Below, piece by piece: positions 1 through 34,852 of a stretch of 64,000 bases of DNA (the first letter of the stretch is position 1; each line of letters begins with the position of its first letter). The notes below the pieces were generated by a model. That model was not told the origin of the DNA. It saw only the letters and a program-made list of their open reading frames with translations, and made no database searches. The position numbers were made by a program, and so were the translations under genes. Origin of the DNA: Marsupella aquatica (lineage: Eukaryota > Plantae > Marchantiophyta). The stretch is from contig OZ316893.1 of assembly GCA_973895155.1 (NCBI GenBank), forward strand, positions 9,487,839 through 9,551,838, in the 5' to 3' direction.

Positions 1-113
1 CAAAATATGGAACCTCTTTACATTGAAAGTGTGGATCGCCAACAACTTCAAGACAGAAAAACGGTAAGAGTCGACCTCGACCAGTACATCCAGTCCTACT
101 TCCTCTTACTTGT

Positions 114-3100
114 TCAGTCATAAACTTCATCCTCTGATTCATCAGAGATGTCACTACTACTAGGATCGCTACTGGTCTCCCTCTCCGTGGACTCGGCAGA
201 CTCATCTAAATACTGACGGACTGTCCCCGCCTCATTGTCAATAAACCTTGAACAATCCAGATATCTTCGAGCACCTCTCATGGACCGAAGTCCTTTCGCC
301 TCCCAAGTCAAGACAACAGGATCTTCATCAACCTGCCTCGCCGATGTCTCAGCATAGCACGGAAGAGTAAAAGGCTTCTCAGGAGTAACCACAATGGACT
401 CCTGGACTTCCCTCCGAAGACGAAATCTCTCCTCAGAAAACCAATCCACCCTCCTATCACTGACGCAACCACCGACATCAGTTGACGAAGAGCAACAAAA
501 TAAAGAAAACAAAAGAAACCAAATAGGGAGTCCGACATCAGAAGAGGCCAAGTACTTTACTCCAGGTCGAATTCGTCTTTCTCGCTTGAAGGCCCAGCCT
601 GTTCATCCCCTGGAATCGTGAACTCATCATCCGACCCAGCGTCTTGATTAACCTTGGCTGGCTGATCCCTAATCTGTTTTGCCTTGCTCGAATGCCTCGC
701 CAGAACACTGTTTAAAGTTTTTTCTGCACAGCAATGGAGAATGTCCCTGTCTTCAACACCGACAACAAATCTCCCGGAGAATTCTCCGGCAGAAAACGAG
801 CTACGGTCACACACAGTCCAGTCAAGGACTATATCTTTGGGCTTCGTGAGGAATTCCATCACGGCTTGCATGAACCCAATTGAAAGCCTTTTCGATCCAG
901 CAACAGCCGCTTCTGGACAGGGGTCAGTCTTAGGGTAACAAACACTCAACATTGACTTATGTCTTGCATCTTCCGAAGATGTCAATGGAACATACGCTGG
1001 GTCTTTAGGAATCTTTGCACTAAATTCCACCCGACAAAAAACATCCAGGATGAGAGTGCACACCTGCATAAAAACCAAAATACATCAGAAACAATGCTAA
1101 CTTTGTTAGCGAGCTCGCTAGCATTAACTTAGTCGGAAAATAGAAAATTAACACCTAAAGAAGATATGTTTGGTAGATAAAACTTATAATTTTGTTAGCG
1201 ACATCGCTAGCATTAAAACTCTCAAGAAATTTAAGGGATAACTACCTCAATATCCATATCTGCCCTCCATAAAGGGGTGGACAACAAAACGGTATATTGC
1301 TGCACATGTTTGAATTTGTTTTTTTGCTCGACTGCCGTAAATATTTGCCTCATGTGATTGAAGTCTGAGCTGTGCAAGACAGCAACATATCCGTCGTCTG
1401 AAAGCATTGGTCTCATCACTCCAAAAAAATAATATGGGAGTTTCTCGCTCCAAACATTCCAAGACGGAACCTGTTTGTCTGTAACGCTTGTTCTATGCCC
1501 AGTTGGAAGAGAAATGAATCCCAAATGTGCTCCAATCCCAGCATAAGGCTTTCCATTAATTACGACATGGTTTGGGCACTCTACGCTCTTTGACATCCGA
1601 GTAATCCATCGATCTCCATCTCCCATCCAAGATGGCCTCACTTTACTTACACTAATTGAGTTTGCAGTATTGGTCAAATTGCTACGAGCCAGGAAATGTC
1701 ACTGCCCATCCATCTTCAAACCACACATCCGAGCAACACCTTGAGCAACTGAAACTTCCTCATCGTCCGAATCTGAAAGAATCTGGATGTTCCGCTTCCG
1801 TTTCAAACATTTTATACTTCCTAAATCCACTGCGCTCTTTATTGTGACTTCGGCATCTGGGGACTGAGGTTCCTCACCATCATCTGCTCCACTCTTCAAA
1901 CTCTCAGAAGCCGCTCCCTTCCTCCTCTCTGTGAAGCAAAAGACATTAGTGTCTGTATATTCGACACCCATCCGGACTTAAAAATAAAAAGTAACATACA
2001 ATTAACAGACTTACTTGGCTTTCCGGAAATCTGGGACCCATCTTTGGATGTGTCCTTCAATGCTCCTTTTCTTGGCTTCCATGCTCGACTCCTATCCACT
2101 ATGGCAACTACACCAAGACAAGCTTTTTCCATCGCCTCGCAACCACCAACTTCAGCATCAGTGGGTGCCAATTTGGACTCGGAGATGTAAGATTCCGGAA
2201 GGAATCCTCGATTGATCATGTGAAGAGCTGCTTTCTCTGCAGTGTCAAATGTCACAGACCATTTGTCCGAGTCCAAATACCATGGACAATGAAGAACCTC
2301 CCACTCGCTCAATCTCCTCGGAGCTTCACTTCCCTCGCATGGAAACATACAATATTCCCCAAATCACTTGTAGGGTCCTCTTTAACCCCGGCTATCCATG
2401 GGGAGAAACAGGCTGGGTAGGACCACCAGTAAAATTTGTCTGCTACTTCTCTGTCTACAAAAAATCGATACGTGTATCTCTTCGCTCTCCTCCGAAACAA
2501 TGTAATGTCTACCTTCTCTCCTGTCTTGGGTGGCCAAATCTGCTTGAAGAAACGAGTTTTCACACGAGTTTGGAAATCCTCAAAATCCTCCTCAATGTCA
2601 AGGATTAGCGAAGCTTTCATCTTCTCTGAAGACGTAAGGATCCTCGACTCAGGGACAGTAGGCATTACCTCAGAAAAAATTTCAGACATGAGGGAAGACG
2701 AAATTGACTCGACTTGCTCCCACACTGCCCAACGATGAAGCCAAAGCTTAGTCTCACCATCTGTGAATTGACCTGGATGAAAGAATTTTTTCCGAAGCTC
2801 AGGACGACACTGTGCCTCCAGGAGTGTACATCGGAGCTCTGGGGATAAAGAGGTCACACCAATGAACAATCGAGCTCGATCAAGACCACAAGAAACATTT
2901 CCCCTGCCTTTATCATCTGTTCTCTGGGCCTCCTTTCTCTCGTTCTCGCAATAGTTATGCATTTCGACACATTTCTTGAAAAAGTCTCCAAACTCAGGAT
3001 TTAGTAATGGACCAATCTTTGGAACTTTCACATTCCAATCAGCAAGTTGTTCTTTCATCATGTCACGCATTGCTAAGTCCTGTGCAGCCTTGGAAAGGGG

Positions 3101-4178
3101 CTCGCCTTGAGCCTCCTTAAGAGCAAATTTCTTCTTAAGGTCCTCGGTCTGCGATGCAATGTTAGCAGCGGATAGAATATAAGTGCAGGCATCCAGCGTC
3201 ATGTTCTTCGAATACCATGTCGCCTTTCGCACATTGGCCATCTTCTGCTGGAAAAGTTTGTAATTCTCAGCGTCGATGATATCTTTGTAAACGGATAAGT
3301 CATTGTTCAGAATCTTTTGGATGCGTTCAGCCTCCAAAACCCAGGAATTCTCTACATGACATTGAGTTAACCTGCCACAACATGCCTCATGTTAGCGAGA
3401 TCGCTAGCTGAAAGTGACCTGGTAAAAATGAAATTTCAGAACTATCTTATCATGAGAAGTCCCACCTGTTCAATGCGTGCATAGCCGACTCGATCTGAAC
3501 GAAAGAGTTCTTTTCACCCTTAAAGATCTTGCAGACCACTCGAGGATGGTACTTAATATCATCCGGATGTTCCTACGCCAATTGGCTCCACGAATACAAT
3601 CGGTGGTTCCCATCAAAAACACAAAACATTTTGTCCTTGAGGATCTGGAAAGAAACATGAGAATCACATTCGCGCTCAAACTCCTCGTTTTGCAACACCC
3701 AAATATCATCCCAAGTTTTGCGGATGGCATCTGTACAGATCTGGATTTCTCCATCCTCGTTTGTCATCTGAACGTAAATCGAGGCGCATCCTCGATGTAA
3801 CCCTGGGTTTTGAACTCGGACTTCAATGTGTCTATCGTAGTGGAATCCTTCTGTAGAGACCGGACAATCTGCATGTTTCTCATCCGGCACAGAGGAATTC
3901 GGGGGGGAGCCAATGCAAATCCGAACTCATTCACTCCAAACAGCAACTACATCTACCGCTGTCACCATCTTGGGCCGCCTTGGAGTCTTCAATCCCGCTG
4001 CAAGTGCTTTCTTGTTTGCTGTGGACCTAGTTTCTCTCCTTGTCGACTCCCTCGACTGAAATGATCCTCTCGAAGAAATACTCTCTGGAGACAACGATGA
4101 CTCCATGAAATAAAACCCTTCGGAGAAGAGTGCTCGAGCCCGGAGACTGCAGCGGCTGCACGCGTCAAAAACGTCCAC
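114..4178 (-). pseudogene. Multi-exon gene for a ParB/Srx-like N-terminal domain + long helical/low-complexity region + beta-class N4C/N6A DNA methyltransferase-like domain; frameshifts and stops
   Basis: ParB-like segment IVRSLQKD..TLKSEFKTQGY ... KMFCVFDGNHRLYSW (3570-3900). MTase-like motif order IV..X-I-II: AHLGFISLPTG, PMLSDDGYVAVLH (1231-1677), then RLSIGFMQAVMEFLTKPKDIVLDWTVCDRSSFSAGEFSGRFVVGVE (557-1078), resembling 'KP..L...LI...T.PGD.VLDPF.GSGTT..AA...GR..IG.E'. Putative GT-AG introns at about 3372-3464, 1930-2014 and 1064-1244. Confidence 0.6.
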
Positions 4179-4786
4179 AGAGCACCTCCTTTCGGAGAAT
4201 TAGGACAGCCGTACAAACTGCTACAAACTCCCTCTGAAGCCTTACAGAGTTACGATAGTGAATACTGACAACGATCGACAGTACGATGTAAGGAATAACA
4301 GAAATCTCCTGGCAGGGACCACTAGTTGTACCTTTTGGAAAACACGAAGAACAACCTTCACGATCGATAATCTTATCCATACAAAATACTCCAGGTGTCC
4401 CGTGTAATTTGTACCGTTGACATTATGGTACCCGTTGACTATTCCCAACGGAATCCTAACGGTAAACTTCGTCAAAAATCAGTTTGACTTTTTGGCTAGC
4501 GAGATTGCTGACATAAACTCAATGACACAGATATCCTTAAAAAGAGTTGAAATCAACGGTTTGCTTGCCATAAAACTATCAAAACCAAGCTAGCAAGATT
4601 GCTAGCATGGGAGACGTCCCTATACGTTGAGTAAAAGACAAAATAATGGTAAAATCAACGGGAACAGACTGACAATCTGTTTGGATTGTTGTTTCCGTTG
4701 GGAAAAAACCCAGTTTTGGTCCTGCAAATAGGATTCGTATGGGCGATTCAAAACATAGTCGTTGTATTTTTGTATGCTGAGAAGAG

Positions 4787-7700
4787 ATGATGTCGATGAA
4801 TTCCAAGGTGGTTTTGGAGCGTAGAATGACGGGAGACGTGGTGGTACTCCCAAGTGCCCCTGACTCGTCGGAGGTTAGGGTGACAGAGTCATTCCTTGCA
4901 ACTCGTTTGGGAATTCCAAAAGATGACCTTGTCATGAAGTTGTTTGAGTTGTATTCTCAAAATGGGCCACGGAGTCACGAGTTGAGAGAGGACAGTAGTA
5001 CTTCCGGGAAGGTCTGGACGCTGAAGGTTGGATCTTGTGTCGAGGTTCTGTCCAGTAAAGATGGTTTTCCTGATGTCATTTTGGAACCCATGGAATTAGA
5101 TCTCGTTCATCAAACTCCTGTGATTGATCTTGGGACGCCTCCCAAAGACAGAGCTCCCGAGGTCATTGAAATATCTCCAGAGAGTATAAGGCAAGACACA
5201 TCTTGTGGTTCGATGAAGTCACGAGATGGTTCCGAACCCGAAGGGTTAGCGACAAATTTGATTGAAAGGACTGGGGATAGCATGACCACAGTATATCGGA
5301 TGAGTGCCTATGACGCTTTTCTCAATATCAATGGAGCGAGTGAACTTGCACAATTTAGAAGAGGGAATCAATGGAATGAATGTCAGGTTTCGACTCTGCC
5401 ATCGACATACAATGGTAACGTTGTTTTTGAACTTCCTCCAGTCGAGGGGGCCGGGAGGGGAGGAGGTCTCCAAGATATGGATCGAGAGAAGGACGACTAT
5501 CCTTGGACGAGACTAGTCACTACATCTGCGAATTTGAAGCCAAGGTTTCATTGGGCTGTGTCGAAAGTTCGTTGCGCTGGAATTCTTGAATGCCATAATT
5601 TGGGTTGCCGGAAGTTGAAACATATTGGAGTCAAAAATGACTGCGCTTTCAGAGGGAAAGGGTTGTTGACTGACATCTTTTGTCTTGGAGAGCAAGTGAG
5701 TGAGGGTGGACTTGTCTATGGCTTCTGTGAAGAGAGGCCTCTCTGTATTCGAGAATGCCCGGCAAAACTGTTGTATGTTTACCCTAAGCCAGGTTTGGAG
5801 AGTCACATTTCAATGCATATGTCCAGATTGGCTGTGCATATGGGATTCCACGATCACCCTGTTTGGAAGGGAAAATCTCGTTCTGCAAGAAAAACAGCGG
5901 AAGATGTTGTTTTAGGGGTCCATCGGTTGAATCCAGTCTCAACTCCCGCACGTCTGAGAAACCAGTCAATTGGGAACCTTGTCTCGCTATTGCATCCAGA
6001 ATCATCGGCTTAGTTGTCGAGAGAAGAACAACAAGAAATTTGGAGTTCGATCGGAGTAGTTTCTACCGCTCCAAAGTTCCAAGCTATTCTTCGGAGTGTG
6101 AAGATGGATAATCCTAAAAAAGGAGAACTTGACTCACTTCGTGAAATGCAATCACGTAACAATTTCCCTTTCGTGCAGAGGTACCTGTTTCCCGGTCAAG
6201 GAAACATAAATGATCGAGCGCATGTATTCAAAATGAGTACAAATGGTCCTGGATCGGGTGTGGAAATTTTGAGGAGCATGGAGGCTGGAGGAGCATTGGA
6301 AGGTTCGTGGGTCAGTTTTGATGTAATGCATCGTATCACTAGTGGATGGTTGACCTTCAGCGCACACGTGTATGACCATAATTACCGCGCTCTGTGTACA
6401 ATTTTCAGTTGCGAGTTGAGAGCCGAAGACACAGAGTCGCTTGAAACTGCGTGGAGGTTAATGGTAGATGTCGCATCCGAGAATGGAGTGCATAATCCCA
6501 TTATTGGAGGATTCATAGCAGACAATGCGGAGGCTGGCTGGATTTCTGTGAGAAGGGTATTTTTGGGGGTGTCAGAAATCCTCTGAAAGAGCATAGTGAT
6601 GCTTTCCATCTCTCTCAATCCCTCAGAAGACACACTTTGGAGGGGATCAAGGAGGGGTGTCATGCGGAGCACTATAAGATGTGGGAGAAGTTAAGAATTG
6701 CTCCAACATACGTCGAAGCATATCGTATCGCCGAAGACATTCAAAAATGGTGGAAAGAGAGGAATTGTCACCCATCCAAGCATAAATCACTACAAGGGTG
6801 GATTTCATGGTGGGTTGTGCGGTGGAGACAATGGGGTAACTTTATTCGTGTGGTGAGTAACGGTGAATTCTTTCTGATGAGTTTAAGCTAGCGAGATCGC
6901 TAGCAATAAAACTTCTTTCGTAAATGTATTTTGGTCACCGACTGAAACATTAGACTGTCTCAAAATAGACATATCGCTAGTGAATACAAGTGTTAACTCT
7001 GCTCATTTTTCAAACGCAAACTGCGAAGGAGTCTGCTCTGATGCCAAACTGTGCTGGAGCTGAATCTGCTCACGCATCAATGCGTTCCTGCCAGCCGAAG
7101 AAGAAAATTGGTTTGATTGAAGCCTGTGAAGTTGACCAGAATCGAGCAGCTGGACAGATTGCAGCGTTCACTGCATACTTGGAAGGGTGTCACCGTGGGA
7201 ATGGTCCTACAATATTTGAGCTGGCCTTCAGAAATGCAGATACAATGGGGTCTATGGATGCCTATGAGAAGGCATCCAATCTACTATTTGAATCATCTGG
7301 AAAATATGAGTTCTATAGAACTGTGCCTTTACATGGAGATCTTAGAACAACGTCAGGAAAACGGAAGGGTAGTGCTTCTGCTTCTATTCATGAAAACGAT
7401 TCTCATAGACATGATAAGATATTGCGCACAGTGGCGTCGCGGTCTAGTTTGAAAAGGAGAAATGTTTACACAGAATTTGGTAACTTCAGCGGTGCTTCTG
7501 ATATTGGTGGACCTTCAGACTTTCCTGGCGATGAAGACAACCCCACTTGCCATGGACCTTCTCTTCCTCGTGAAGTTATAAATATATCAGATGATGGTGA
7601 AGATCTTAGCCGTGGAGATACAACACAGGACCCGAACTACGTTGGAGAAATACCACAGCCTCAAAATAATCGGGATGAAATTTGGGATGCACCCCGAAGG

Positions 7701-8586
7701 ATCCCTTTTGTTGAAGAGGTTGATGTGACATATGGGACCTGGCACTTGAGGCGGAGTGGAAAAGGGAGTGGACCTGTTTGCAATGGACGAGTGGACCAAA
7801 GTGTGTTTGGAAGAGATGAGTGCAGGAATCTCATCAAAGAAACTGGAATGAAGGCATTCCGGGCTGTAGTGGTTGGTGTTGCGATTCACGGATTGAGGTT
7901 GTCATCTCCACATCGTCAGCTTCTATACTTCTGTCTGAATAATAGGTGCCATAAAACAGGTGGCAGAAGGACTCTTGCCCAGCTTCCGGAACCACCTGAG
8001 GCATTGCAAGTCCAGCGTGGGACCAGGCTGACCCCAACAGAGATTGACTTTCTTCTTCAAAATGGGATTGAAATCAGAGGATTATCATACTCTGATCCAG
8101 CACCGATTGGGTCGTTCTCCTCTCCAAATCGTGTTGACCTCCGAATTGATGTGAACTCCTTCCCAGAAAGAGTTGACATTGGTATTCCAAACCGTAGATT
8201 CAAGACCCGGAATGCGAAAGGCGTTCGTCAACGTTTCCAGAACACCCCGGAGCTTCTCAAACGCATTCGATCTGCGACTGACGAACATATGAGAGTCATT
8301 GGAAGTCCTCGGAAACGGGTGGGGATGGCAACATCTTATCGTCACTCACGAGACAGATTCTAAAATTGCACACAAGTACTGGGTGCAAGTGTGTTGCTTT
8401 CCTTCTTGCTCATGTGATGACTTCTACAAGAGACACATGAGAGGAAGACCCTATATGTCTTGTAAACACCTCCTCTAGGTGTACTTAAACAAGTTCTCAC
8501 TGAATCTAGACAGAGACGATCTTGTGAAGCAACCAATTCTGACTGTTGTTGAAGTAAGGAGTTTGATTCCGTTGCAGTGTAGTTGA
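4787..8586 (+). pseudogene. Mutator-like DDE transposase with N-terminal GCM/WRKY-like Cys/His domain and C-terminal SWIM zinc finger (disrupted)
   Basis: CAGILECHNLGC...CEERPLCIRECPAK...HMGFHDHP (GCM/WRKY-like). VSFDVMH (D1); GFIADNAEAGWISVRRVF (D2); frameshifted HSDAFHLSQSL (C/DxxH); NCAGAESAHASM (E). PSCSCDDF...SCKHLL at 8401-8475 is a SWIM CxC..CxH motif. Stop at 6011-6013, frameshift near 6570, intron from 6853. Confidence 0.75.
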
Positions 8587-9142
8587 CTTAATCTCTATTA
8601 TCCGTTGAGGTGAACGTTTCAGCGTCCCTAATTTTGTCGCCTTTTTGGTTTTCAGAACAGAGGAAAGTTGTCCACCTCACTAATTATATTGCGTATGCAA
8701 TGTTAGCGAGGGTCTAGTACTATTCTATACGTATCGGCAATAGTGTTTATTTTGCTAGCGAGGTCTCTGGCGTTAAACCCGTAAAGTAAAGTTTTATGTT
8801 TCCCGTAAACGGTTTCTTTTTGACCAAGTTCTACATAACGTAGAGTTCAATAACTCATGTATTTTAATTGGTTTTTGGATATACATTCGGAGAAACAAAC
8901 CATTTTAGTCACGCATAGTTTTGCTAGCGATGTCGCTAGCAAAACTAGTACTGTAAGTCCAAACATTGCAGTTGGAAATCTTCTCAAGAAGTTATTTCAA
9001 AATGAACAAAGATGTTCTCCCTTACAACTGTGTTGGACATTGAGTGTCGATATCACGTTTTCGGATCCCAGATCTACAAAATAGACACAGTCTACAAAAT
9101 GTCTATGCCCCTACACCATGGACTACCGTTACTGTTTCCTAT

Positions 9143-10039
9143 TCAAGGGCTCGCTACCTTGTACGCATCGGAGTCAGAGTCGGAGACTGTATCATAGTCG
9201 GAGGAAGCGAGGATGTTTTCCGTGAAATAGTCGTGGATCTCGAGGTCCCTCCAGTATGACTCCTCCTCTTCTCTCTTCCGCTTCGCCGATACCCCCTTAC
9301 AGACAGGCGCTTTCGAACGAGAAGAAACTTGTGTGTGGGAGACCGGATTCGTCAATGTCTCCTTACAAGGTGCGGCCGTCTTGTAGTCCTTGGACAGGAC
9401 GGGAGCCTTGCTACCGGAAGGGGATGTACTCCTCTTAGGTTTGTCGATAGTACTCTGAGTCTGCTTCGATTCTGTGGACCTTGGAGGTGAATCCAGTTGA
9501 CCGTCAGTTTCGGCGTTATATCGCCGAACTTCCAGAATCCATTTACGAGAAGATCCACCCTCGTTCCGTGCCGTTTCTCCCTGAAACGAAAACAAATGCG
9601 ATAAGTTTACTTGAAATCTTTCGAAAAGTCTTCTTATGTTGACGAACAAGAAAGCGAATGACAACGAATACCTGATAGAACACCAAACTGCAAGTGGACA
9701 ACATATGATAGAGAACGGGGATACCTCGATCCGGATCCGAGCGGAAAATGTATGCTCCTTGCTTCGACGATAGTAACGACAGTTTCCAGGATGACAGTAG
9801 CTTCGCTGACAGTAGCAGAGGTCACAGAAGGGCTTCGACAATCGGGAACACAACAAGCAAATCACGCTTCGAGTAAGCGTCGAGCCCAATGAAAGTCCGA
9901 AAGAATGGCTGAAAGGAAATGAATGGAAATGTTTCTTAAGGAGCGAGTAAGATATAGGGGATGATGGATAGCTGGAGATCCTTCCCAACGGATTGGGATC
10001 TTGTCTGTTGGTTGTACTTAGATCTTGTCTGTTGTGCAT
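9143..10039 (-). CDS. Possible third gene of the MULE-like element (Ser/Lys-rich then acidic protein, unknown function, probably spliced and decayed)
   Basis: 298-aa ORF. Putative intron ~9581-9724 (GTATCC...TTTCAG). KRKREEEE NLS-like stretch. No recognisable domain. Confidence 0.3.
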   Translation of the reverse strand: MHNRQDLSTTNRQDPNPLGRISSYPSSPISYSLLKKHFHSFPFSHSFGLSLGSTLTRSVICLLCSRLSKPFCDLCYCQRSYCHPGNCRYYRRSKEHTFSARIRIEVSPFSIICCPLAVWCSIRYSLSFAFLFVNIRRLFERFQVNLSHLFSFQGETARNEGGSSRKWILEVRRYNAETDGQLDSPPRSTESKQTQSTIDKPKRSTSPSGSKAPVLSKDYKTAAPCKETLTNPVSHTQVSSRSKAPVCKGVSAKRKREEEESYWRDLEIHDYFTENILASSDYDTVSDSDSDAYKVASP

Positions 10040-11112
10040 TTCACGCTCGGTGTCCGGATGAAGCTTTGGATTCTGTCCTTGGATGCGCTCCCGAGATTGT
10101 TTAAGTCAAAAAACATGCTTCCTTGTCCCGTGTCATTATGATTTATTCACGTCTTTAACGACTGCGCGCCAAAGTTCGTGCGAGAATTATGGGTGTCACG
10201 ATTGCTAGCGATTTCGCTGGCCTGACGTACGTTCCATGATGATGGTCACTTATAGGGTCTTTAAGTGGACTGTTGTGCGACAATTACGTGATATGTAAAA
10301 ATGTGCGAGAATGATGGGCATAGTTATGGCTAGCGACTTCGCTGTTCTGATGTACGGTAGAATTATATGTTGAATTATGGTGCCGTCAACGACCGTTCGT
10401 GTCCAGGGAATACGTAATATGTACCAATGCATCGTCGGGATCGCTTTTTAAACCCAACGGGAGTTAAATAAATAGGTGGAATAGAAGGTTCCTTTTAGGC
10501 TAGCGAGTGTCACTTTTTGCTAGCGATGTTGTTTTCGTGCTAAATTTTGGGTATTCCAAGGAGAAAATGATCCCGTGCGAGGAAATTTTTTACTGTTTCC
10601 TCGCACGCTACAATGACCCTAGGAGATATACTCCGGCCATTTGGAAACCCCATATGAGTAGTTCATCACAAATAACTATAAAGTCCAGGGTTTGGCCTCC
10701 CAATGGAGATGCTCTAGGACTAATTTGTCCTGCCTCCCTACTCCAGTGGTAGGAAGAGGGGCAAATACCAGAACTTTATCTTGCTCATTCAATGTGTGTT
10801 TCCATGTAATAATTGGATTGACCCCAAAAATCATGTCCAGGATGTCCTCGGGACCAAAGTGAAGCTATCTTGGTACTTCAAAGCTGCACTTGACTAGGCT
10901 ATGATTGAATTGTGGAAATAAGATCCAGGACCGATAATGCAGTGACCACACTTGAATAATAACTGGAAGTCCTTATGATTGAAACGACCTTCTTTATAAA
11001 CGTAGCAATCGTTCTAAAACAAAACAAAAAGAAACAGGAAGAACAGGAGACAAAAGGAAAGTCCACGCTATTGAAAATGGATACAAAGTCATGAGATCAG
11101 ACGTGCTTAACT

Positions 11113-11277: not shown

Positions 11278-11486
11278 GATGTGTGTCAAAGGACCAGATT
11301 TTGCCTCTTCTAATCTACGTTGCAGCCCAGGATGGAGTTTGTCAACTCGTTGAAGTCTTTTGTAAGCCTGAGCTTGTGCACTTATAGAACTTTCTTCCCA
11401 TGTACTGTACGAATTTCCCAGACAGATGAGGCAGAATTGCATCAAACCAATGTTGAATTAGACTTCGATGAACAAGTGTCGGGGCT

Positions 11487-14400
11487 TCAAAGGCGAGAAT
11501 ATCCTCCCGACTTTGCCTGCGGTTCTCGTTCTTTTACAGGCAGCTGCAAATCTTCTCCAAGGTCTCCCTCGACAGGGGAAAAGTGGTATTCTACTAACTC
11601 GGGAGTTACTTGCTCCAAAACTGGTGGGTTCCACTGCAGCAACGGAATCCAAGCCCCACTCACGGTCAGAAAATACTTTGAGCTGTATGATCTTTACAAA
11701 GTAACAACACAACACGGATATTGGAGGAAGAGAATGACAATATGCCAACTAAAGACGGAACACGAGCTCACACAAATATGATGACTGTACCTTTGGTGAA
11801 TTGTCTTTATCAACCAACATAGCTCGACATCCCTCTCCAAAATCATTGGAGAACCGGCCCTCAACTGCGTGAACGCTCAATCGGAATTCCCGTTCCAGGC
11901 ACTGATGCAAACTCTGTCTCCTGCCTTCCCTCACCTTTACAGCAAGTAATCAAATTCCAGGTGAGTGGCGGAGAAGTTCGTAGAATGTAATATCTCAAAC
12001 TTAGTCATTTGGCATATCGATAGCACTAAGAGTTTTATCTCTGCTTGCAGTGAATCTTCCGTGCAAACATATTTAGTTGACGTGACTTTAAGCTAGAAGT
12101 GATAAAAAGTATCTTTCATAAGAGCTCAATGCCCTACTCACAACTGAGAAGGCAGGAATTTCGTCACACATACCGATCGTAAAGTGATTTTCAGGCTGAG
12201 AGGTGATGCTTTTTTTAAAGCGGTGAGAGTTTCTTGGTACCATGGGTGTCCAGTCTTGATACCAGCCTCCTGCAAAAGGCATTCAAGTAATTCAACTTCT
12301 ATCCATGCACTGCATTCAGTCCAATCTACTACAAGGTCATAAGTCACACAGAGTTGAGGTTTTAAGTGATATGACTCACAAGTGCACGGACTATCTCCTC
12401 CATAGAACTTCTACCAAAACAACTGTCAATCTCCTTTCTTCTGCAAAATGCCAAGAACGTCAATGGTAAGCCAGCCCGTAAAATCCATCATAGAGCCCGT
12501 ATATTTTTCTCCCTCATGCCCTTACAACATCTATACTTAGCTAGACTGGCAACTCTCAATATCTACTGTTAGTACTCACCTGTGAAGAGGGCTCTTCTCT
12601 TTGAGTTGCACTATATCACAATGCTCATCTACAGCATTGCTAATAACTTCTATATCTTCAGTATTTAAACTTCCCAATCGCTCCTCAAGCATCTCCAACC
12701 GCTGCATGTGTAAATGTGGCCATCCCAACTTAGATATATCAGACTCTTATTGGAAGATATCAACGTCTCTTTCATGACTTGGCTTCAGGTTTTAAAATTC
12801 ATAAAAGAGACACGGAACACACGGAAACGACATGATGCTGGAGAACAGGTGATGAATGACTTTGCCTCGCACCAGAAAAAAAAGTAACTGTACTGGAATA
12901 GATAAGGAACACAGATTATGAAGATGCTTACATGTGATGGAACAAAGTGAGTTGCCAAATTGGTTGCCATCATGTCAGCACCATCAAGTCGCGTCCCAGT
13001 AAGAGCCAAGTACTCCCCTGTTCATAGCAGTTTTGTGTCATTAGCACACACCAACACCCGACCGAAAACTAATGCAACTAAGCATTCCACAAACCCTTCC
13101 ATAAATTATAACCGGTAATCTTAACTTTCACCATCACAAAAGCAAAATCAAAAACAAAATCGAAGAAGCCTCACCTAAATGACCTGGCAGACGAGGGAGA
13201 TAAAATGAAGCTCCAACATCTGGATGTAGAGCTATTGCAGTCTCTGGCATGGCAAACACCTAAAATGCATTCCATGAATCCTATGAATCTCAGAAATACA
13301 ATCGTGACAGATATGTATTTCTAAAGCAACAAATCAGAAAAGCATCGAATACTAATCTTTACTGCCTAGGGACCAGGTAACTTTACAAGCATGCGCAAGC
13401 GTGCTCAGATACAGAAGCAGATACTTTGCCAAGAATACAACTAAATACTCGAAAGAATAAGAACGTGAGGAGATAGATAACTGTATTTTCAGTAGCTACT
13501 CTGAAACGACCATGAATTGAGATACCAGTGCCTCCTCCCATTACCACCCCGTCCAGGAAGGCGATCTGTAAATATAGACAACTCAGAGTTAGCATTGCTT
13601 GAAACATGCTGGTCCCCTGCAACCACCATATTTGCGTCAAGATTTCTAAAATAGTCCTCTTGAAGAATCAGAATAAAACTTCCACAAACGACAATAGATG
13701 CTTACAATTTGAACAACAAATATTTGAAAGAGGAAACATGCATGCTTCTATCCAAAATCTTGCGAACATGACCTCGGATCTGTGGACAACGTGAGTTAAA
13801 ATGGGAAGAGTAAAATACTTGCATGCGGTTTCTTGTATGTCCCAACCAAGTAGTTGAGAATATATTCCTTTTTAAAGAAGTCTATCGCTTCATCGTTTTT
13901 TCCTGTAGAGCCCACAACTGTAAGTTTTCATGATCACCTAGCTGCAGACCTGTCAATATAGTTAGCGCTTGTGATATCAAGCTGATGACAGAAGTCTTTT
14001 CTTAAATAACAGTGTACATACTGCTTTGCCTTAAAAAAAACCAGTGGATTCTTTTTAGTAGTGACATAAGTGAAATGATTGTTGCTGAAAACCTACAAAA
14101 GAACTGCGATGTAAATTCGTTTTGATTGCACAAGACGATATCGAACACTGCGTGGACGTCCGTGAAAGTGAATGGGTCGAGCACAGTTTACATATTTAAG
14201 ATAAAATCTTGGGAGAATGATAAAGCCCGTACCTGCTTTCGACATTTGATAAACTCCTGCAACATCTCCACCAGCACAGAAACCTCTACCATTACCCTTG
14301 TACAGCACAGAAAGACACTCCTTCAGGACCTCCACTATGATGTATCTGTCAGCAGAGTTCAAGGCTCTTCTCTAGTCAAACCCTTTCAAGTTATATGTTG

Positions 14401-15416
14401 ACACACTGAATACCTGCTCCTGCTATAATGTATATATACAGGGAGAGGATGTAATACAGGGGATAAGCCTCTTTTCCTTCCAAATTGGATATATGTACGG
14501 TGAGCCAAAATATGGACTTCGGATTTTTTCCCTCCTTCGCACAAATAAGACCATGCCAATTTTGTTTGAGAATCGAAAACAATTCAAAGTCAGAGAGCAA
14601 AGGCCAGTTTAAGGTGCAATTGAAGGCGGAGTAGGGCGTACTCACTTTGACTATCACAATATGCACATGTGGGTCTTTCTCCCACCCTTCATATAGTTTT
14701 AACAAAAGCGAAACCTGTCCAGACGTACCATGCCAGTAGTTTCTCACCTTTCATAATCAGATGTACAAATCAGTTGAAACAACGTACAGGAGACACCAAT
14801 TCTCAATAAAATATAACTGAAACTGCAAATTCCAATTGCTCTGGCTAGACAACTGAAGAAGCGTAAGATGCACATACAATCAGCTGAACAGACTCTCTTC
14901 AGACTCTCTTCAACTCAAATCAAAGAAGCGAAAATTGCGCAAAGCAAAATCTGGAAATTGGTGAGGCACACCATTTTTGGGGTAAGTGCATTCAATTTGC
15001 GAGGCCTATTCAAAATAGCAATTTTCGTTCCAAAACGCTCCTCTGCCAAAACCTGGAAAAAGAACGTTGTGACGGGAAGGTCGAATCCCTTAATCAGAGA
15101 CATCACACAGACACAGAGAGAAAGGATGACGATCAAACTGGTTTTACAATCTGAAGAAAAAACCATGCATGATTCTCAGCAGCCCAGAACTCTAATGTTC
15201 ACCTCAAGAAAAACACAAAATCTGAAGGTCGGGTGTCGTTACGTATAATACCTCCTCATCGAGTGGCACCGCAGTGGAGGGTTTTGCCGCCATGGTTGAC
15301 TGACGGGAAACGCGGAATAAATTATTTGACGGTAGAGCTGTTGATGCCACCACTGCTTTCCCCCCTTCCCAAACCTTCGTCACAAAAAGCGCTCGCAATC
15401 TCTGCACCCCCAGCAT
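11487..15416 (-). CDS. HIBCH: 3-hydroxyisobutyryl-CoA hydrolase-like protein (enoyl-CoA hydratase/isomerase family), probably mitochondrial, multi-exon
   Basis: Exons encode [109 protein letters not shown] and [18 protein letters not shown] at 15416 with a transit-peptide-like N-terminus; TGA at 11487-11489. Confidence 0.9.
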
Positions 15417-16427: not shown

Positions 16428-16768
16428 TGTTAGATATTGTTCTAGTCTTGTGACTCATGAGCTAACTACAGTTAAAACTCGGGTTAGGACTTAGCTAATG
16501 TTAGCGGTAGTGTTGTTGTGCTTATAGCCAGGGCTGATGCTAGACCCTGGTGGAACTTAGGCTCATTGTTACGGAGCTAGTTGAGAGATAGGGAGAGCTT
16601 GTGCTGTGGATGCTTGGTATGGCCGGTTGGCCTAGAGTGCAGTAAAGCTCTTGTGTGTTCCCGTGGACGTAGCCTCATGTGGAGGTGAACCACGTATCTC
16701 TCTGTGTCGACTATTGTGCGTTGGATGGTTCATGGGCTTGCCGTTACGAATGTCGTCTATGCTCAACA
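16428..16768 (+). repeat. Copia 5' LTR
   Basis: TGTTAGATATTG...ATGCTCAACA, direct repeat of 32441-32781. Confidence 0.97.
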
Positions 16769-16770
16769 AG

Positions 16771-22785: not shown

Positions 22786-25190
22786 TTGGTCACCATAGAT
22801 TCTTCTGGTGTTGTTGGGTTACCCAATGGACAACGGACCGGTTTCACTCAGAGTGGGACACAGTTTCGGCCAGCGGCATTGGTAGCAGTCAACAGTGCAG
22901 CTTCAGACAGTGATTCCGATGAGGACTCAGTCACCAGTTCTCCTCGTCATCAGGTGGTTGCACCTTTGTTGTGGGATATGGACGAGATGTACGGGGCTAC
23001 AAAGGGCCCACGATGATGCTCTGGTGCAGTTGGCACAATTGATCTGGATGACTTCATCTAGGAATTTGATACGTGGTGCGATATGTAGACCTGCGTAACG
23101 CCACGTTGTTTACCCCTTTCATGGCATGGAAGGGATTATTTCAGCATTTGGAGGGGCCACCCATGGATGACTACCATGAGTTTTGGAAGGCTCATTTGGT
23201 TGAGATTGAGGCATGGAGGCAGCATTGGTCGCCTAATTATGTGTCCATCACCTATGGCACTAGTGCGGCTGTCCAACCCATTGCCACAGCTGCTGCTTCT
23301 TCTAGCAGCACTAGCCAAAGTGGCACACCATCCACCAGTAGCACTCCAACAACATCCACCGCTACTCTTGCCGATGTGATTGTGACAGGAACTGGAGTTG
23401 CGCCAGCATTTAACCCTGTGGTGGAATTCTTTGAGGTACTGAAGCAGAACTATCAGGGTGTGAGAACGGATAAGTTGAAGGGTCTCCAGGAGTTCCAGCG
23501 CAAGACTGGAGAAAGTCTACGTGAGGGATACACTCGTATGCGCAGATTGATCACTGTCACCAAGGGAGTGACAAAGGCTCAGGCAGTCCAGTTTTGGTAT
23601 GCAATTCTGGATAGAGAATTACGACGTTAGAGTGAGAGATGTCACTCTGCTTAGGGATGCAGATCCTACATTAGCAGTTGTTTTTACCCTTTCTGAGCGC
23701 ATTGAGCTCAATATGGTGAATGAGAAGGTGGTGACTTTCGGATTTGCCAAGGAAACACCAAAGGCTGCATCTACATCCACACCACAGCCTACTGCACGAA
23801 AGAGCCAGAGGGAGAAGCCTACTGCACGAGAGTCTACCAGCCAGAGACCTGTGCCCTCTTATGCTGGACACCAGTCAGGATGTTGGACCTGTGGTGGGGA
23901 TCATGCACAGAGATATTGCCCAGATCATAGAGGATTAGGGGGAGCATCAGCGCCTGATCAGCGACAGTGCGATCACTGTGGAGCTCCTGGACACACCAAA
24001 GATAGGTGTTTCTCACTCCACCCTGAGTTACGGACTCGGGGGTCTCACTACATGGGGACCTCCCCATCACCTGCGACGTTTTTAGGCCTTGGACCCCCTA
24101 AAATGTAAGAAAAAATATTATTTTTTAACCCCTATAAAGTTGGAATATTCTTGGAATATTCCAAAAATTGGATTAAAAAGGCTCTATTGTTCTTATAAGT
24201 CTCAAAATTGAATTTAAAAGACCCTATTGTTCTTCTACAAAAATTCTTAAGTCTTCCCTTACAACCAATAAAATGACCCTATCCTTCGTCGCACGTGATA
24301 TGCCATTTTTGTGAAAGTGAAACCCCTGAGGTTACGGAGAGGAGGATCCCGTACACATGATTAGGGAAGAGGAGGAGGAGGAGGTAGAGGTGGTGGACGT
24401 GGTCGAGGCATGCCACGTGCAGGGAGACAGGGAGGTGACGCTGCCCCTGCTGTAACCATAGATCCAAAGGATGCTAAGATTGCTCATTGGAGCAACAACT
24501 AGCTGCCATGGCTAGTTCCCAAGTGAGACCTAATTCTGGTGATGGGGCATCTACATCCTATGGACCTTCCACATCCCATGGTCCTTCCACATCTTATGGA
24601 GCTGATGGAGACCTTGCCACCATGGGATTCATGTGTGGCACTGCACATATTGATGCATCAGCAATTTTGACACGTGGGGCAGCTAAAGCTCTTGAGCCTC
24701 GAGGAGCAGTAGTGGAGTTAGATCCACAAAGGGGGGATGCACGTCGGCAAACAAAGCTTCCTCAGTCTTTTACATTGTTAGAGACAGTTCAGACTGCCTC
24801 TATGAACCCGATTCGGAAAAACCCTGGCGTGGGTAAGTTGGCAGAATCAAGTAGTGATGCAACAGGGATGATAGGTACCCTACTGGGGGCGGCTACTGCC
24901 ATGGTACGCACCCCATTATTTTCAGCGACAGACATGCTGAACTTGGGAGTTGGTCCTGCAAAGGTGTTTAGATTGGCAGCTACACTCTGTGAGAACACTC
25001 TAGTGGTTGCTTCCCATGCAGAAGCAGCTTGCAGTGTTGAAGTAGTGAAGACCATGCCACCTACTACTACTAGTGAGACATGGGATGCAGCAACAGCGAG
25101 GTTGGTGGATTTACCAGCACACCCTGCATTTGAGAGGACTAGGTTTAAACCTAGTGTTGTATCATTGGATAATTGGAGTGGCATCTTCTG
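22786..25190 (+). pseudogene. Gypsy gag-like region with two CCHC zinc knuckles, interrupted by a MITE
   Basis: LQEFQRKTGESLREGYTRMRRL (retrotrans_gag-like); CWTCGGDHAQRYC and CDHCGAPGHTKDRC; Gly/Arg-rich stretch resumes after the MITE. Confidence 0.8.
24035..24330 (+). mobile_element. MITE (296 bp), copy 1, inserted in Gypsy gag
   Basis: 15-bp imperfect TIRs CTCGGGGGTCTCACT / AGTGAAACCCCTGAG. 8-bp TSD GTTACGGA at 24027-24034 and 24331-24338. Homologous to 53136-53433. Confidence 0.93.
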
Positions 25191-25560
25191 ATTAGTTGGG
25201 CCTTTTGGAGCAGTATACCAGCCAGAGAGGGTGTTACTAGATACTGGTGCTCAGCCCTTGATGTTGGGAAAGTTTGCCATACGTGGATTGGGATTACGTC
25301 CAGAGGATTTAGAGGATTGTCCCTTTCCCATTCAGACTTCATTGGGGGGACCTACACCTACACAGCACATTACCATGAGACCTCTTGATTTGAGGATTCA
25401 GGAAGGTCATACCACAGATAGCTCACAGATACAGGCACGAGCTATTTTGACTAAGGCAGAGTCATATGATGTGTTGGTGGGATGTACAGTGCTTTACCCC
25501 ATGAGATTTATTCTTGATTTTGGGGAGGAATCAGTGTCATATAGACCTGATTGGCAGTCA
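25191..25560 (+). pseudogene. Gypsy aspartic protease
   Basis: VLLDTGAQP (DTG active site) ... YDVLVG. Confidence 0.8.
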
Positions 25561-25934
25561 GGAGATGCTCGATTGAGCAAATTGCTAGTGAGATTTAGTG
25601 GACTTGTGGGAGGCCCTAAATCCACACCATTGTCTTTGGCAGCATTCAGTGGTCTAATTGCTGGACTTGATGATTTGATTGAGGGTAATGCGCATGCAAC
25701 AGATGTTCCACCATTGGAGGAGTCTCATGAGGAGCACATCATGCAAGGATTACCTAATGGCAGTGTTGTGCCACCAGTGTGGGGCACTGCACAGGCCTTG
25801 CCACAGATAGCAGCACGATTGGTACATGATGCATGGCGTCATGCTTTTACACCACAGTCAGGAGCAGAACAGTCTCTTGCAGATGGACATGTGACTCTTT
25901 CACCATTGGATACCACTCCTATTGCTTGGCAGTA

Positions 25935-26900
25935 TCCACCGGAGGGTATTTGTTTGTTGGATCTTTTTGGTGGGATTAGCACTGGATTGGCTGCGGTTCT
26001 TCAGGCAGGAATTCCTGTGCGTCTTTATTTGTATGTGGAGACAGATGAGATAGCACGGAGGGTCTCATTGCAACATGTGGCTATGTTGGTGGATAGATAT
26101 CCACAGTTGCTGCCAGTGGATGTTGTTCGTGGTTATCAGCATGCACTACCTACTGATATTTCATTGTTGGGGGCGGATCATCTGCATTGTGTTGGCCCCA
26201 TTGATTTGGTGATTGCTGGTTGGCCATGTCAGGGCCAATCTAGAGCTGGCGTTGGGCATGGACTTCATGATCCACGCTCTGCATTTTTTTGGGAGATGTT
26301 ACGGGTGCTGCGTCATCTCTAGCTACATCAGACACAGTCTCCAACATACATTTTGGAGAATGTGCCATTGTTAGGTGATGATCGTAGTCGGATTGTTGCC
26401 AGTGTTCACCAGGTGAGGTCTTGGATTGGACCTGTTGTGTTATTGGATGCTGCACATGTGGGTTCTCATGCACATCGTCCACGCTTGTGGTGGACTAATT
26501 TGATCCCATGTGAGGTGTTGAAGCGCGCATTTGACAGTATTCCACGCTCACCCGCCTTAGTGGTGGATGCTATTTTGGATCCAGTGCGTCGTGCACAGGG
26601 TGTGACCCAATCTGATAGACCTCCATTGGCAATGGTCAATGCAGTTGGGCGCCCATGTTGTGCATTACCCACTCTTGTAAGCTACTCTGCTTCATATGCA
26701 TTCAGAGCAAGTGGCCCTGGACTTGTGTGGGACACAGCTCTCCAGCAGTTAGTGGAACCTACTGCTGATGAGAGAGAGCGTGCTATGGGATTTTTGACTA
26801 GCACCACTGCAGTTGCCTCTGTGTCAGAGGGTTTGCGGCGCCAGGTTCTTGGCCAAGCAATGGATCTGAATTGTTTGACTTGGATTATCAGCTTGGGAGT
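25935..26900 (+). pseudogene. DNMT3-like C5-cytosine DNA methyltransferase domain within Gypsy pol (one in-frame stop at 26320-26322)
   Basis: Motif I LLDLFGGISTG; II YVETDE; IV DLVIAGWPCQGQS (catalytic PC); VI YILENV; VIII AHRPRLWWTN; IX ERERAMGF; X RRQVLGQAMD. In frame with the protease. Confidence 0.92.
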
Positions 26901-27131
26901 AGCTGAACAGTTGCGGATGCGCCTGCTGGAATTATTGATCATTGTCCCTTGGTGAGCTTGCGGTCCACTGAGATAGTACTGACCACAGCTGGGGGCGAGC
27001 AGATAGTCCATGGACCTATGGCAGGATTGGCCAAGGCTGGACAGATTGTTGAGCAGGAAGGGACTGCTCAATCTACTGCTAAATAGCAATCATCGGCTAT
27101 CTCTTCTACCCTACAAAGAGATATTAGGGAT

Positions 27132-32440: not shown

Positions 32441-32781
32441 TGTTAGATATTGATCTAGTCTTGTGACTCATGAGCTAACTACAGTTAGGCTAACTTGGGT
32501 TAGGACTTAGCTAATGTTAGCGGTAGTGCTATTGTGCTTATAGCCATGGCTGATGCCAGACCCTGGTGGAACTTAGGCTCATTGTTACGGAGCTAGTTGA
32601 GAGATAGGGAGAGCTTGTGCTGTGGATGGGTATGGCCGATCGGCCTAGAGTGCAGTAAAGCTCTTGTGTGTTCCCGTGGACGTAGCCTCATGTGGAGGTG
32701 AACCATGTATCTCTCTGTGTCGACTATTGTACCTTGGATGGTTCATGGGCTTGCCGTTACGAATGTCGTCTATGCTCAACA
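32441..32781 (+). repeat. Copia 3' LTR
   Basis: Preceded by PPT CAAGGGGGAGTT, followed by TSD AAAGC. Confidence 0.97.
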
Positions 32782-33158
32782 AAAGCAAGGCTCTGACCAT
32801 GAATTAAGGATAGTCAAGGGGTGAGGATAATCAAGACTCAAGACCAGGTTTGTTGGGTAGAAGAAAAATCAACCAACTAATCCTTGTTATGGCTTGCTCC
32901 TCACACCACCCTTATTATCTCCTCCCCTGAGTTTTGGGGAATCCAATGGCCATGGGCAAATGTCACCACCTAGTTACACTTGGAGAATTGTGAATATTGA
33001 GAGACAATGGGCAAAGGGCGCAGGCACGGGCAACAAGGTACCAGAGGCTCATAATGAACCTTGAAGTTGTCTTTTGTTTTGAATCAATGCCCTAAAAATA
33101 AGCTGGGATATATTTTCCCCCAAAATGAGAGCTTGAGCACAAGTTTTGAGAGGCTATC

Positions 33159-33795
33159 TTGTTAGGTATTTACTCTTGGGTCTAGAGTAATGACTGTAAC
33201 CATAGTTATGTAGAGCAAAAACGTGACCTCCAATGGTTGCACATGACCATTCAACAAGCAAGTAGTTGGCATACATTGAGAGATATGTGGTTCACCTCCA
33301 ATGAGGCTACATCCACAAGAACATAGAAATATTTTGATGCCCTCTAGGACCGTTAGCTATACCAAGTCCCCACAACATAAGCTCTCCATATCTCTCAAAT
33401 GTCTATGTAACAACTAACTTGAGTTTACAAGCAAACATTGCTTGAGTTTATAGTCCGAGGCAACACAACTAACCTAACCAAGACTGTGACTATGGTTAGC
33501 CCTACTTCTGACTACAATAGTAACTCTAGACTAAGAGCAAATGCCTAACAAGTTAGGCCAACAATAGTTACAAACTTGGTTTATGTATGCAAGCAAGTGT
33601 TTGCTTGTCTAAGGAACTCAGGCTTATTGTTACACAACCACTTGAGAGATAGTGAGAGATTATGCTAAGAAGACTTGGTATGGCCAACAACTTAGAGTGC
33701 AGACTTAAAGCTCTTGTGTGTTCCCATGGATGTGCCCTCATTATTTGGAGACTAACCACATATTTCTTGTTGTTGATTATTTCTTTGTTGGATGC
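33159..33795. repeat. Cluster of degenerate LTR relics related to the Copia LTR, in both orientations
   Basis: 33612-33795 (+) resembles the LTR segment AGGCTCATTGTTAC..GAGAGATAG..TAAAGCTCTTGTGTGTTCCC. 33278-33330 is the reverse complement of GTGGA(C/T)GTAGCCTCAT..GGAGGTGAACCAC(G/A)TATCTCTC. TTGTTAGG(T/C)ATTT(A/G)CTCTT occurs at 33159 (+) and ~33551 (-). Confidence 0.65.
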
Positions 33796-34852
33796 ATGCT
33801 GTTGAGAGTTTTGCCCACTAACCTAATTACCCATTCCTTTGCTCTAGGAAATGAATTTACCTCGAGACCATAGCCCTGGAAAATAGCCTTACATTGCATT
33901 TAATTAGTAATTAGTAAGATGCTCAACATATATTCCTAATGCTCTAGTAAAAGAATCTTAATACACTTGTCTAAGAGATTTTTCTTGTTACTAATTTTAG
34001 TAAAAGTAAAGGAGAACCTTAATGAATGAGATATACAAATCTTGATTGTGCATTTCTCACAAGAATTCCTGTAAATTGAAAGTGAAATAAACATGTAGAT
34101 TGAAAGTGAAAATAAGCAGGAAAAATCACCAAAGACATTAAAGAATATCACAAAGGGCATGAAAGGTATTGTATTAGCTTCCGGAAAATACACAAAGGGT
34201 ATTAAATAGGGCATCTCAAAGTTATCAATTTGATGGACCTACACTCCCTAGTTACCCATTTTGCGCTTTTTCCCCTAAGTATTAGTCTTACATGCCATTA
34301 CCATCAATCACTCTAGAGGCTGGTGACCAAAAAACCCCCAAAAAAAAACTTTACATAACCTTTTGTAAAAGTTATTCCTTTATGGTCTAATGCCATATCC
34401 ATAATCTCAAAGCGTTGAGACTCCGTAATACATAGTAGAGTCCGGGTGAAAGATCACTACTGTATCAGCTTCCGATTGTGCATTCGTCTTGTGTCCACCT
34501 TCCTGATGCGATCGTTTGGCTTTTTGATCATGCGCGAAACAGAAATTTGAGTGAAGGTACCACACCTAGAGCGATTGTGTCAATAGCTGCTCACAGAATG
34601 GTTTGCTGAGCATGCGAGAAAATTGAGGAAGAAGGGCCTGTTTGAGCTCTGTTTCTGAGTTCTGTTCTGACTCTTTAGTACTCAATCCGCGAGATCAATC
34701 CAGACCTCCTAGACCTGCCTGAAGCCAGAGAAGGGAGCTTCTCAATGGTTTCGTCGATGAGGTAAAATGTGTGCGGTCGAGGTGCATTTAGTCTGCTGAG
34801 TTGCTGGGAGAAGGTGGTGGAGGGGAGGGGAAGGGAAGGGAAAGGAAACAGC

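Follow-up and report, generated by a model that had tools for sequence, protein, structure and literature searches.

What might a plant transposon gain from carrying a gene whose product appears to join a ParB-like domain to a DNA methyltransferase (MTase) fold? The question is raised by a 64,000-nucleotide stretch of the liverwort Marsupella aquatica (contig OZ316893.1; termed here the window), the beginning of which belongs to a multicopy element, likely a Mutator-type DNA transposon, that bears a transposase gene on the plus strand and, head-to-head with it on the minus strand, the gene in question (termed here the accessory gene). An initial annotation, made from the sequence alone, had proposed that a prokaryotic ParB-MTase fusion was acquired horizontally and became transposon cargo that marks or shields its own element, possibly as a dead enzyme that binds DNA. 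The answer favored here, tentatively and at somewhat below even probability, is that the accessory protein may be a self-recognition factor, likely non-catalytic, that reads short palindromes within its own element and shields that element, much as VANC proteins do for Arabidopsis VANDAL elements. Most of the mechanistic case is carried by two features absent from the initial annotation: the palindromes themselves and the retention of CpG dinucleotides.

Palindromes in the non-coding DNA of the element

An 18-bp palindrome, GCTAGCGA-NN-TCGCTAGC, counted at up to 3 mismatches, matches 11 times in the 64-kb window, 10 of these within the element, as against 0.11 matches expected by chance. All 10 lie in introns, spacers or the subterminal region--that is, in the non-coding 24% of the element--and 20 of 21 half-sites are likewise non-coding. 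A distant element agrees: the locus L001, which was the only one of 29 candidates confirmed in a metagenome scan with the transposase (2,078 bp, transposase 63% identical), carries three palindromes whose arms are the same; they lie in the corresponding intron of its transposase gene, the rest of which does not align. Viral contigs yielded 7 single matches, none near a family protein, and these are taken as chance. The placement in introns, spacers and ends agrees with that of the motif which VANC21 binds in its own VANDAL elements, leading to their hypomethylation (PMC5735166). Within the element the sites and genes are arranged as follows:

114..459, minus strand: accessory gene exon 5 (inferred); C-terminal tail with an acidic end, placed by frame continuity and a weak match to the Riccia homologue P0167
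460..560, minus strand: intron 4; GT-AG, 101 nt, inferred from frame continuity (without splicing, the protein would stop at 557)
561..1063, minus strand: exon 4; second half of the predicted MTase domain, with S-adenosylmethionine (SAM)-binding motif I at 823-803
1064..1245, minus strand: intron 3; GT-AG, 182 nt, two palindromes (1105-1122, 1194-1211)
1246..1928, minus strand: exon 3; acidic/basic linker and first half of the predicted beta-class MTase domain, with SLPT (motif IV) at 1512-1501
1929..2014, minus strand: intron 2; GT-AG, 86 nt, without palindrome
2015..3371, minus strand: exon 2; middle region of ~450 amino acids, 28% identical to the Riccia homologue P0146, frameshift at 2362
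3372..3465, minus strand: intron 1; GT-AG, 94 nt, at a family-conserved position, one palindrome (3391-3408)
3466..4106, minus strand: exon 1; low-complexity N-terminus and putative ParB/Srx-fold domain (IPLCR..VR, DGNHR at 3614-3600, HPRV, terminal LN)
4107..4780: divergent intergenic region; two palindromes (4495-4512, 4589-4606)
4781..~8480, plus strand: transposase pseudogene, probably Mutator-type; Cys/His finger (GCM-like by motif), D (FDVMH), D (ADNA), DxxH
6853-7013, plus strand: transposase intron; one palindrome (6887-6904)
~8370-8470, plus strand: SWIM-like CxC..CxH of the transposase
8481..9142: spacer; palindromes 8754-8771 and 8923-8940, half-site 8701
9143..10105, minus strand: third open reading frame (ORF); 320 codons stop to stop, possibly with one intron, inside the multicopy span
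10106..10619: right subterminal region; palindromes 10204 and 10329, half-sites 10498 and 10518, 12-bp hairpin near 10572-10607

The reader of these sites might instead be the transposase, acting through its GCM-like finger, with the ParB-MTase gene unrelated to them. Transposases of Mutator-like elements (MULEs) do bind subterminal repeats (PMC5499845), their WRKY-GCM1 fingers have been suggested to control the transposases' own expression (PMC1702500), and L001, having been found by its transposase, is too short at 2,078 bp to show an accessory gene. Yet six of the 10 palindromes lie more than 3.5 kb from the known end of the element, three are inside introns of the accessory gene, and the terminal hairpin differs from the palindrome in sequence; moreover, ParB-like accessory genes in red algae also adjoin inverted-repeat arrays (bioRxiv 10.1101/2025.02.11.637652). 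That the sites serve the transposase alone is considered quite unlikely.

CpG retention

The observed/expected (o/e) CpG ratio is 0.80 for the element (bootstrap 0.71-0.90), 1.04 for its non-coding DNA with the palindromes removed, and 0.81 for L001; corresponding values are 0.32 for neighbouring transposons (hand-picked ORF regions; nested Gypsy) and 0.62 for host-gene regions. An unpicked comparison gave 0.36 for a CACTA region and 0.49 for a whole long terminal repeat (LTR) element. The contrast, though real, is not without an exception, which is given below. Substitution counts among the copies in sequencing run X1 (C>T plus G>A, 398; A>G plus T>C, 300) lack a control and are not used.

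These ratios bear upon a rival that likewise has the accessory protein binding the palindromes, in this case for transposition mechanics or self-regulation--condensing, end pairing or a divergent-promoter switch--and not for anti-silencing. Such a role would suit the two palindromes in the divergent promoter region, the four sites near the end and the exception to the CpG contrast, and ParB proteins are described as condensing and bridging DNA around palindromic sites. By itself, however, it leaves the CpG ratios of both the element and L001 unexplained, as well as the retention of an MTase fold, and is regarded as unlikely.

A putative ParB/Srx-fold domain at the N-terminus

What kind of protein might read the palindromes? 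The fold of the N-terminal domain was modeled on a homologue 53% identical to the window's domain, using a 76-row alignment, and the model has a predicted local distance difference test (pLDDT) score of 87.6. When compared with 48,161 chains in a structural search, its top eight matches are all of ParB/Srx fold (Z 6.9-4.5)--KorB (the best, with Z 6.9 and a root-mean-square deviation of 2.6 over 92 aligned residues), PadC, sulfiredoxins, a ParB-N domain, SerK, Atu1540 and SbnI--and the first unrelated match, to helices, scores 3.8. Language-model features (the Atlas) place the domain with a ParB_N cluster (0.92) and with DUF3723 clusters (0.96 and 0.95). A ParB profile found nothing meaningful in a PDB sequence search. 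The G, N, H and R of the DGNHR motif are conserved in 72, 75, 71 and 65 of the 76 rows, an upstream Arg is kept in 55 of 63 and a downstream Asn in 68 of 71; we take the GxxR, this Arg and this Asn to correspond to ParB nucleotide-binding residues. The assignment of the N-terminus to the ParB/Srx fold, which the initial annotation had suggested, is moderately strong, as judged from the homologue model and the Atlas clusters. Its companion proposal, direct descent from a prokaryotic ParB-MTase fusion, fared otherwise: the ParB profile has no similarity to a phage ParB-MTase fusion (hhalign probability 0.3%), and ~600 unrelated residues separate the two domains.

A permuted methyltransferase fold that has likely lost its activity

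By sequence comparison, the C-terminus is a permuted beta-class amino-MTase fold, in which motif IV precedes motif I, as had been proposed. PF01555 matches three of five Riccia relatives (E 9e-6 to 5e-5, falling slightly short of the curated cut-off) and four PHROG DNA-MTase families match Riccia relatives (best E 4e-9), while the window exons alone match no Pfam or PHROG family. Because a phage PF01555 enzyme, aligned pairwise with the family over 230 columns, places its DLPY on the family's DLPT, SLPT is fixed as motif IV. Foldseek, given a low-confidence model of the domain, ranked CcrM (E 1.6e-4), M1.HpyAVI and MboIIA first; a structural search with the same poor model reached at best Z 7.6, with half-domain matches. 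In a PDB sequence search the best match of exon 4 was a beta-class MTase (E 1.8) and an MTase profile reached E 0.02; exon 3 gave nothing meaningful.

Among 172 proteins searched, 26 rows cover motif IV, which reads DLPS in 9, DLPT in 6, DMPT in 4, DMPS and DLSS in 2 each, and has three single variants. The catalytic pattern (D/N/S)-P/L/I-P-(Y/F/W) calls for an aromatic fourth residue, which occurs in none of the 26. SLPT itself recurs, by matching difference counts, in a high-depth contig of run X1 and in a contig of run X5. Motif I, the glycine loop of D-x-F-x-G-x-G type, reads DFAGGWG in 14 of 22 Riccia rows, with variants in most others; the window copy has DWTVCDR, other copies have Gly at the last place, and a divergent subfamily has DWTIGDG. 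The non-canonical WTVCDR to which the initial annotation had drawn attention does not point to a degenerate motif in the family, which largely keeps the glycine loop; its Arg is private to the window copy, all contigs covering position 805 in four runs having Gly.

The aromatic residue of motif IV stacks on the flipped base. With the glycine loop largely kept and the aromatic missing, the family has likely retained SAM binding and lost the base-stacking residue, and the MTase domain is likely catalytically inactive. The non-canonical motif IV across the aligned relatives thereby lends support to the dead-enzyme option, which has a precedent in inactive transposon-borne MTases of DIRS1 (PMC4738411). 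In the bdelloid enzyme N4CMT, changing SPPY to APPA abolishes activity, this being a double change and hence no direct test of the Tyr alone (PMC8885841).

Alternatively, the enzyme might be active despite its non-canonical motif and write N4-methylcytosine (4mC) or N6-methyladenine (6mA) upon its own element, thereby blocking 5-methylcytosine (5mC) or marking the element as active. This would account for an intact motif I in most Riccia rows and a Gly-containing one in other copies, and for the retention of the proline and of D or S as first residue of motif IV; 4mC writers of bacterial origin are described from plants and animals, and 4mC at CG would presumably also spare CpG from deamination. 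Nevertheless, the absence of the stacking aromatic from all 26 aligned relatives, the failure of the family to keep the phage HPTQKP motif, the inactivated N4CMT and the DIRS1 precedent render an active writer, which had also been entertained for this locus, rather improbable.

Gene structure, decay and conservation

The accessory gene comprises five exons on the minus strand (4106-114; ~1,180 codons), all four introns being GT-AG (94, 86, 182 and 101 nt) and the frame being kept through splicing, which bears out the initial annotation's spliced gene head-to-head with the transposase. The motifs it named are all present (DGNHR at 3614-3600, ISLPT at 1515-1501, LSDDGYV, TKPKDIVLDWT and SGRFVVGVE); the start it placed at 4178 is replaced by an ATG at 4106. 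The spliced frame from 2360 to 114 has 626 codons and that from 3770 to 2363 has 438, each with one internal stop. Exon 5 weakly matches the C-terminus of Riccia P0167 (31%, E 2.7e-4). Outside support for the splice model comes from two observations: copies divergent from the window align over exons 3 and 4, with intron 3 left unaligned between them; and, of the 68 homologues that have the conserved Asn preceding intron 1, 50 stop one residue past it, just as an unspliced phase-2 intron would cause them to do. The intron after the ParB domain is, on this alignment evidence, conserved across the family.

The window copy is a pseudogene: its frame changes near 3945-3955 and is shifted at 3775 and at 2362 (the letters missing at these two places are present in other copies), and stops occur at 3575-3573 (exon 1) and 1701-1699 (exon 3). 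The homologue alignment extends the frame to 3946, and a C7 run near 3905 is accordingly rejected as the site of the first break.

Scanning with a 101-residue ParB piece (HMMER) gave 141 matches; named representatives, found in 19 of the 26 match clusters looked up, are all from Riccia sorocarpa or Adiantum. Riccia P0146 (1,207 amino acids) is collinear with the window gene over exons 1 to 4 (N-terminal half, E 4e-53), and a tree of ParB-domain rows--44 of 127 usable rows, namely the named rows and the best unnamed matches--puts the window sequence on the Riccia side of a split from ferns (support 100/99). Pfam found nothing under E 0.05 in 16 window pieces. The middle region (~450 amino acids) has no Pfam family and no usable Atlas match, and a word-based search with its ORF among longer proteins confirmed 0 of 2,704 candidates; this search also missed the 28%-identity Riccia relatives. 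In Adiantum capillus-veneris, P0115 and P0055 keep the ParB part and motif I, their gene models being without the motif IV half; at its C-terminus P0115 carries a domain resembling NIF/FCP1 phosphatases (PF03031, E 2e-12).

Might the gene simply be passive captured cargo, and the palindromes by-products (e.g., RNA hairpins or slippage repeats) with which it shares no function? That both genes are pseudogenes in the window copy would fit. On the other hand, full-length collinear homologues in a liverwort and domain homologues in ferns keep the motifs and the intron position, the palindrome is conserved where the flanking intron is not, and palindromes also occur in untranscribed-looking spacers, all of which makes passive carriage very improbable.

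The element and its transposase

In run X1, summed contig depth is 190-1060 over positions 1-10643 and 15 in the flank (depth not being equivalent to copy number); the step near 10643 recurs in all four DNA runs, as judged from contigs aligned to 1-11000. Behind 10619, 35 records diverge (agreement 0.37), marking the right end of the element. The depth step and the diverging records together place both genes and the third ORF within a single unit that is repeated and inserted at many sites, which upholds the earlier view of the gene as multicopy transposon cargo instead of a single-copy gene. MULEs are characterized by long terminal inverted repeats and a target-site duplication of 8-10 bp. 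The left end of the element falls outside the window; the right end reads GGGTC inward, as does the Muta1 terminal motif.

The transposase, which starts ~680 bp from the accessory gene on the opposite (plus) strand, is broken in the window copy by a stop at 6011 and a frameshift near 6565, and its intron acceptor is mutated there, nearly all the covering contig depth having G at 7013. It has nine homologues (48-65% identity); two Asp residues, D103 and D170, are invariant in all 10 rows, and DxxH follows the second in eight of the nine homologues, (C/D)xxH at this place being a feature of the MULE DDE core that is shared with hAT (PMC5499845). MULE transposases have an N-terminal WRKY-GCM1 finger and a C-terminal SWIM (PMC1702500; PMC5499845), and here Cys/His patterns occur in the order expected of these, without a profile match. 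The third acidic residue of the core was not located, Pfam gave no MULE match, and a PDB sequence search gave nothing meaningful. Assignment to the Mutator type is therefore likely, not proven.

As to linkage between the accessory gene and this transposase, it holds in the source genome, and no counterpart in another species was found: none of the nine transposase matches is from Riccia or a fern, no transposase relative occurs among the viral contigs, and a metagenome scan with the ParB homologue confirmed 0 of 64 candidates. The third ORF (9143-10105, minus strand), for which neither Pfam nor the PHROGs give a family, may be a further accessory gene.

The case for self-recognition, and what weighs against it

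These features suggest the following mechanism. The accessory protein, and not the transposase, likely binds the 18-bp palindromes in the introns and spacers of its own element; it would read each palindrome as a dimer and may spread from the site in the fashion of ParB. (The CTPase clamps ParB, KorB and Noc read a palindrome through a central helix-turn-helix, close as dimers and slide in a CTP-dependent manner; ParB clamps spread from parS.) The MTase fold would serve to bind DNA, a base or SAM instead of transferring a methyl group. The bound protein would hold host 5mC silencing off the element, and the CpG retention would reflect long-term escape from 5mC brought about by this protein.

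A number of results weigh against self-recognition. For the ParB/Srx fold, the best Z of 6.9 is below the structural-search mark of 8; Foldseek has no ParB match under E 0.001, its best being ParB-CDP 6sdk (second in rank, probability 0.98, E 0.076); and a Pfam scan of 26 homologues yields no ParB family. In the middle region no helix-turn-helix that could recognize DNA was located. For the MTase domain, the model is poor (pLDDT 44.6); 24 of the 26 motif IV rows are paralogues from one species (Riccia), many of them probably decayed; and one fern homologue, outside the 26-row set and among 20 regular-expression matches, reads DVPF. As for the sites, four lie within 420 bp of the element end, in the subterminal position where MULE transposases bind. 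The 5' part of a neighbouring LTR element has a CpG ratio of 0.74 (its 3' part, 0.31), and high CpG is therefore not unique to the element; moreover, the first set of comparison transposons consisted of hand-picked ORF regions, and the CpG values come from one window only. Finally, linkage of the accessory gene to the transposase is seen in the source genome alone, with no contig piece bridging both genes among the 32 of 8,965 pieces listed.

Relationship to known systems

The combination of ParB and MTase domains as cargo is not new: it is already in print for the Ectocarpus transposon Sola1-1_Ec32, whose accessory gene, on the strand opposite the transposase, encodes a 1,104-residue protein combining a ParB-like domain with an N4C/N6A MTase. 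Its authors suggest that such accessory proteins form a class whose members bind and modify the transposon encoding them, and point to similar green- and red-algal proteins (PMC12477816). The liverwort protein, likened here by description, similarly has both domains in one chain of ~1,100 residues and the same orientation. Sola1-1_Ec32, however, belongs to a brown alga and to the Sola-1 superfamily, is 21.5 kb long and has a methylase predicted to be active; the excerpted account contains no mention of catalytic erosion, dispersed palindromes or CpG retention (PMC12477816).

Similarly, the red-algal PAG2/PAG3 cassette of Plavaka and Mutator elements carries a PF01555 MTase and a ParB-like domain, and the inverted-repeat arrays beside its ParB-like gene have been proposed as binding sites (bioRxiv 10.1101/2025.02.11.637652). 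There the two domains are described as encoded by separate genes, accompanied by a 2-oxoglutarate (2OG)-oxygenase and a SET domain, and the repeats form tandem arrays, unlike the single dispersed palindromes of the liverwort element. The VANDAL elements of Arabidopsis are likewise Mutator-type and have an accessory gene (VANC); a short motif recurs in their introns and spacers and in the non-coding DNA at their ends. Escape from DNA methylation, which is proposed for the liverwort element, has been shown for VANDAL/VANC (PMC5735166). VANC differs in consisting of DUF1985/DUF287 domains and in recognizing non-palindromic 8-9-mers in tandem repeats (PMC5735166); Pfam matched neither domain in the window pieces or in 31 homologues.

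The beta-class PF01555 enzymes--phage DLPY-type, CcrM, M1.HpyAVI, MpDN4MT1 and bdelloid N4CMT--also have motif IV before motif I, and the accessory family resembles the class in sequence and fold. As described, these are active host or phage enzymes with TSPPY, SPPY, DPPY or DLPY (e.g., Marchantia DN4MT1, a TSPPY host enzyme; bioRxiv 10.1101/2021.02.12.428880), whereas the accessory family is transposon cargo without the aromatic. Lastly, DUF3723 of fungal Starships is also conserved cargo, though of another type of mobile element and in another kingdom (bioRxiv 10.1101/2021.12.13.472469). The DUF3723 clusters are the nearest named ones to the N-terminal domain (0.96 and 0.95, with the family on 31% and 47% of members, respectively), this being a language-model lead without alignment or E-value. 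Within literature mostly outside subscription journals and supplements, no paper was found on a land-plant form, an eroded motif or dispersed palindromes. ParB-MTase transposon cargo as such is already known; the land-plant version, with its eroded motif and explicit palindromes, is a variant of it.

Other features of the window

Several further features were observed in the window:

25192-26955, plus strand: Gypsy-like retroelement in which a C5 DNA-methyltransferase domain (PF00145, E 2e-6) separates protease from reverse transcriptase; similar captures have been reported in retrotransposons
57000-63700: CACTA/EnSpm element (Transposase_21, DUF4218), with extra ORFs at 60471-60986 (minus strand; SET-like motif by eye, no Pfam match) and 62853-63626 (plus strand)
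24035-24331 and 53135-53433: ~280-bp inverted pair, 90% complementary, 29 kb apart, with several host genes between
16476-16769, 32492-32782 and 33273-33741: LTR pair of a Copia-like element, 96-97% identical, with a Gypsy nested inside, and a third inverted or partial LTR copy; this is the LTR element whose 5' part has the high CpG ratio
53465-54640 and 55430-56275: degenerate arrays rich in pyrimidines (19-bp and 35-bp), and an 88-bp array rich in purines
11314-15400, minus strand: presumably a host gene, by eye 3-hydroxyisobutyryl-CoA hydrolase-like, adjoining the right end of the element
34766-44537: presumably host genes, by eye ribosomal protein S9-like, eIF4E-like and F-box

Implications

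VANDAL elements are described as the only ones for which binding and unsilencing of the element's own DNA are known (bioRxiv 10.1101/2025.02.11.637652). Algal ParB-MTase cargo has been proposed to unsilence its own element, without a defined site; the liverwort element offers an explicit candidate palindrome. Direct testing is possible, since distant elements share this candidate site, the MTase looks disarmed, and a liverwort genus that can be cultured has relatives of the protein.

A more specific and doubtful version of self-recognition would see here a ParB/parS-like system of seed-free land plants, in which a nucleotide-gated clamp loads at the palindromes and slides over the 10-kb element, its pseudo-methyltransferase shielding cytosines from 5mC. 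Such a clamp, if real, would constitute a second anti-silencing system, unrelated to VANDAL/VANC, and would account for the protection of kilobases by a handful of short sites; it may form one pan-eukaryotic class with the algal PAG3 and Sola1 proteins and Starship DUF3723. If self-recognition is correct, it would amount to a sequence-programmed means of holding kilobases of plant DNA unmethylated, and to a eukaryotic use of the ParB clamp.

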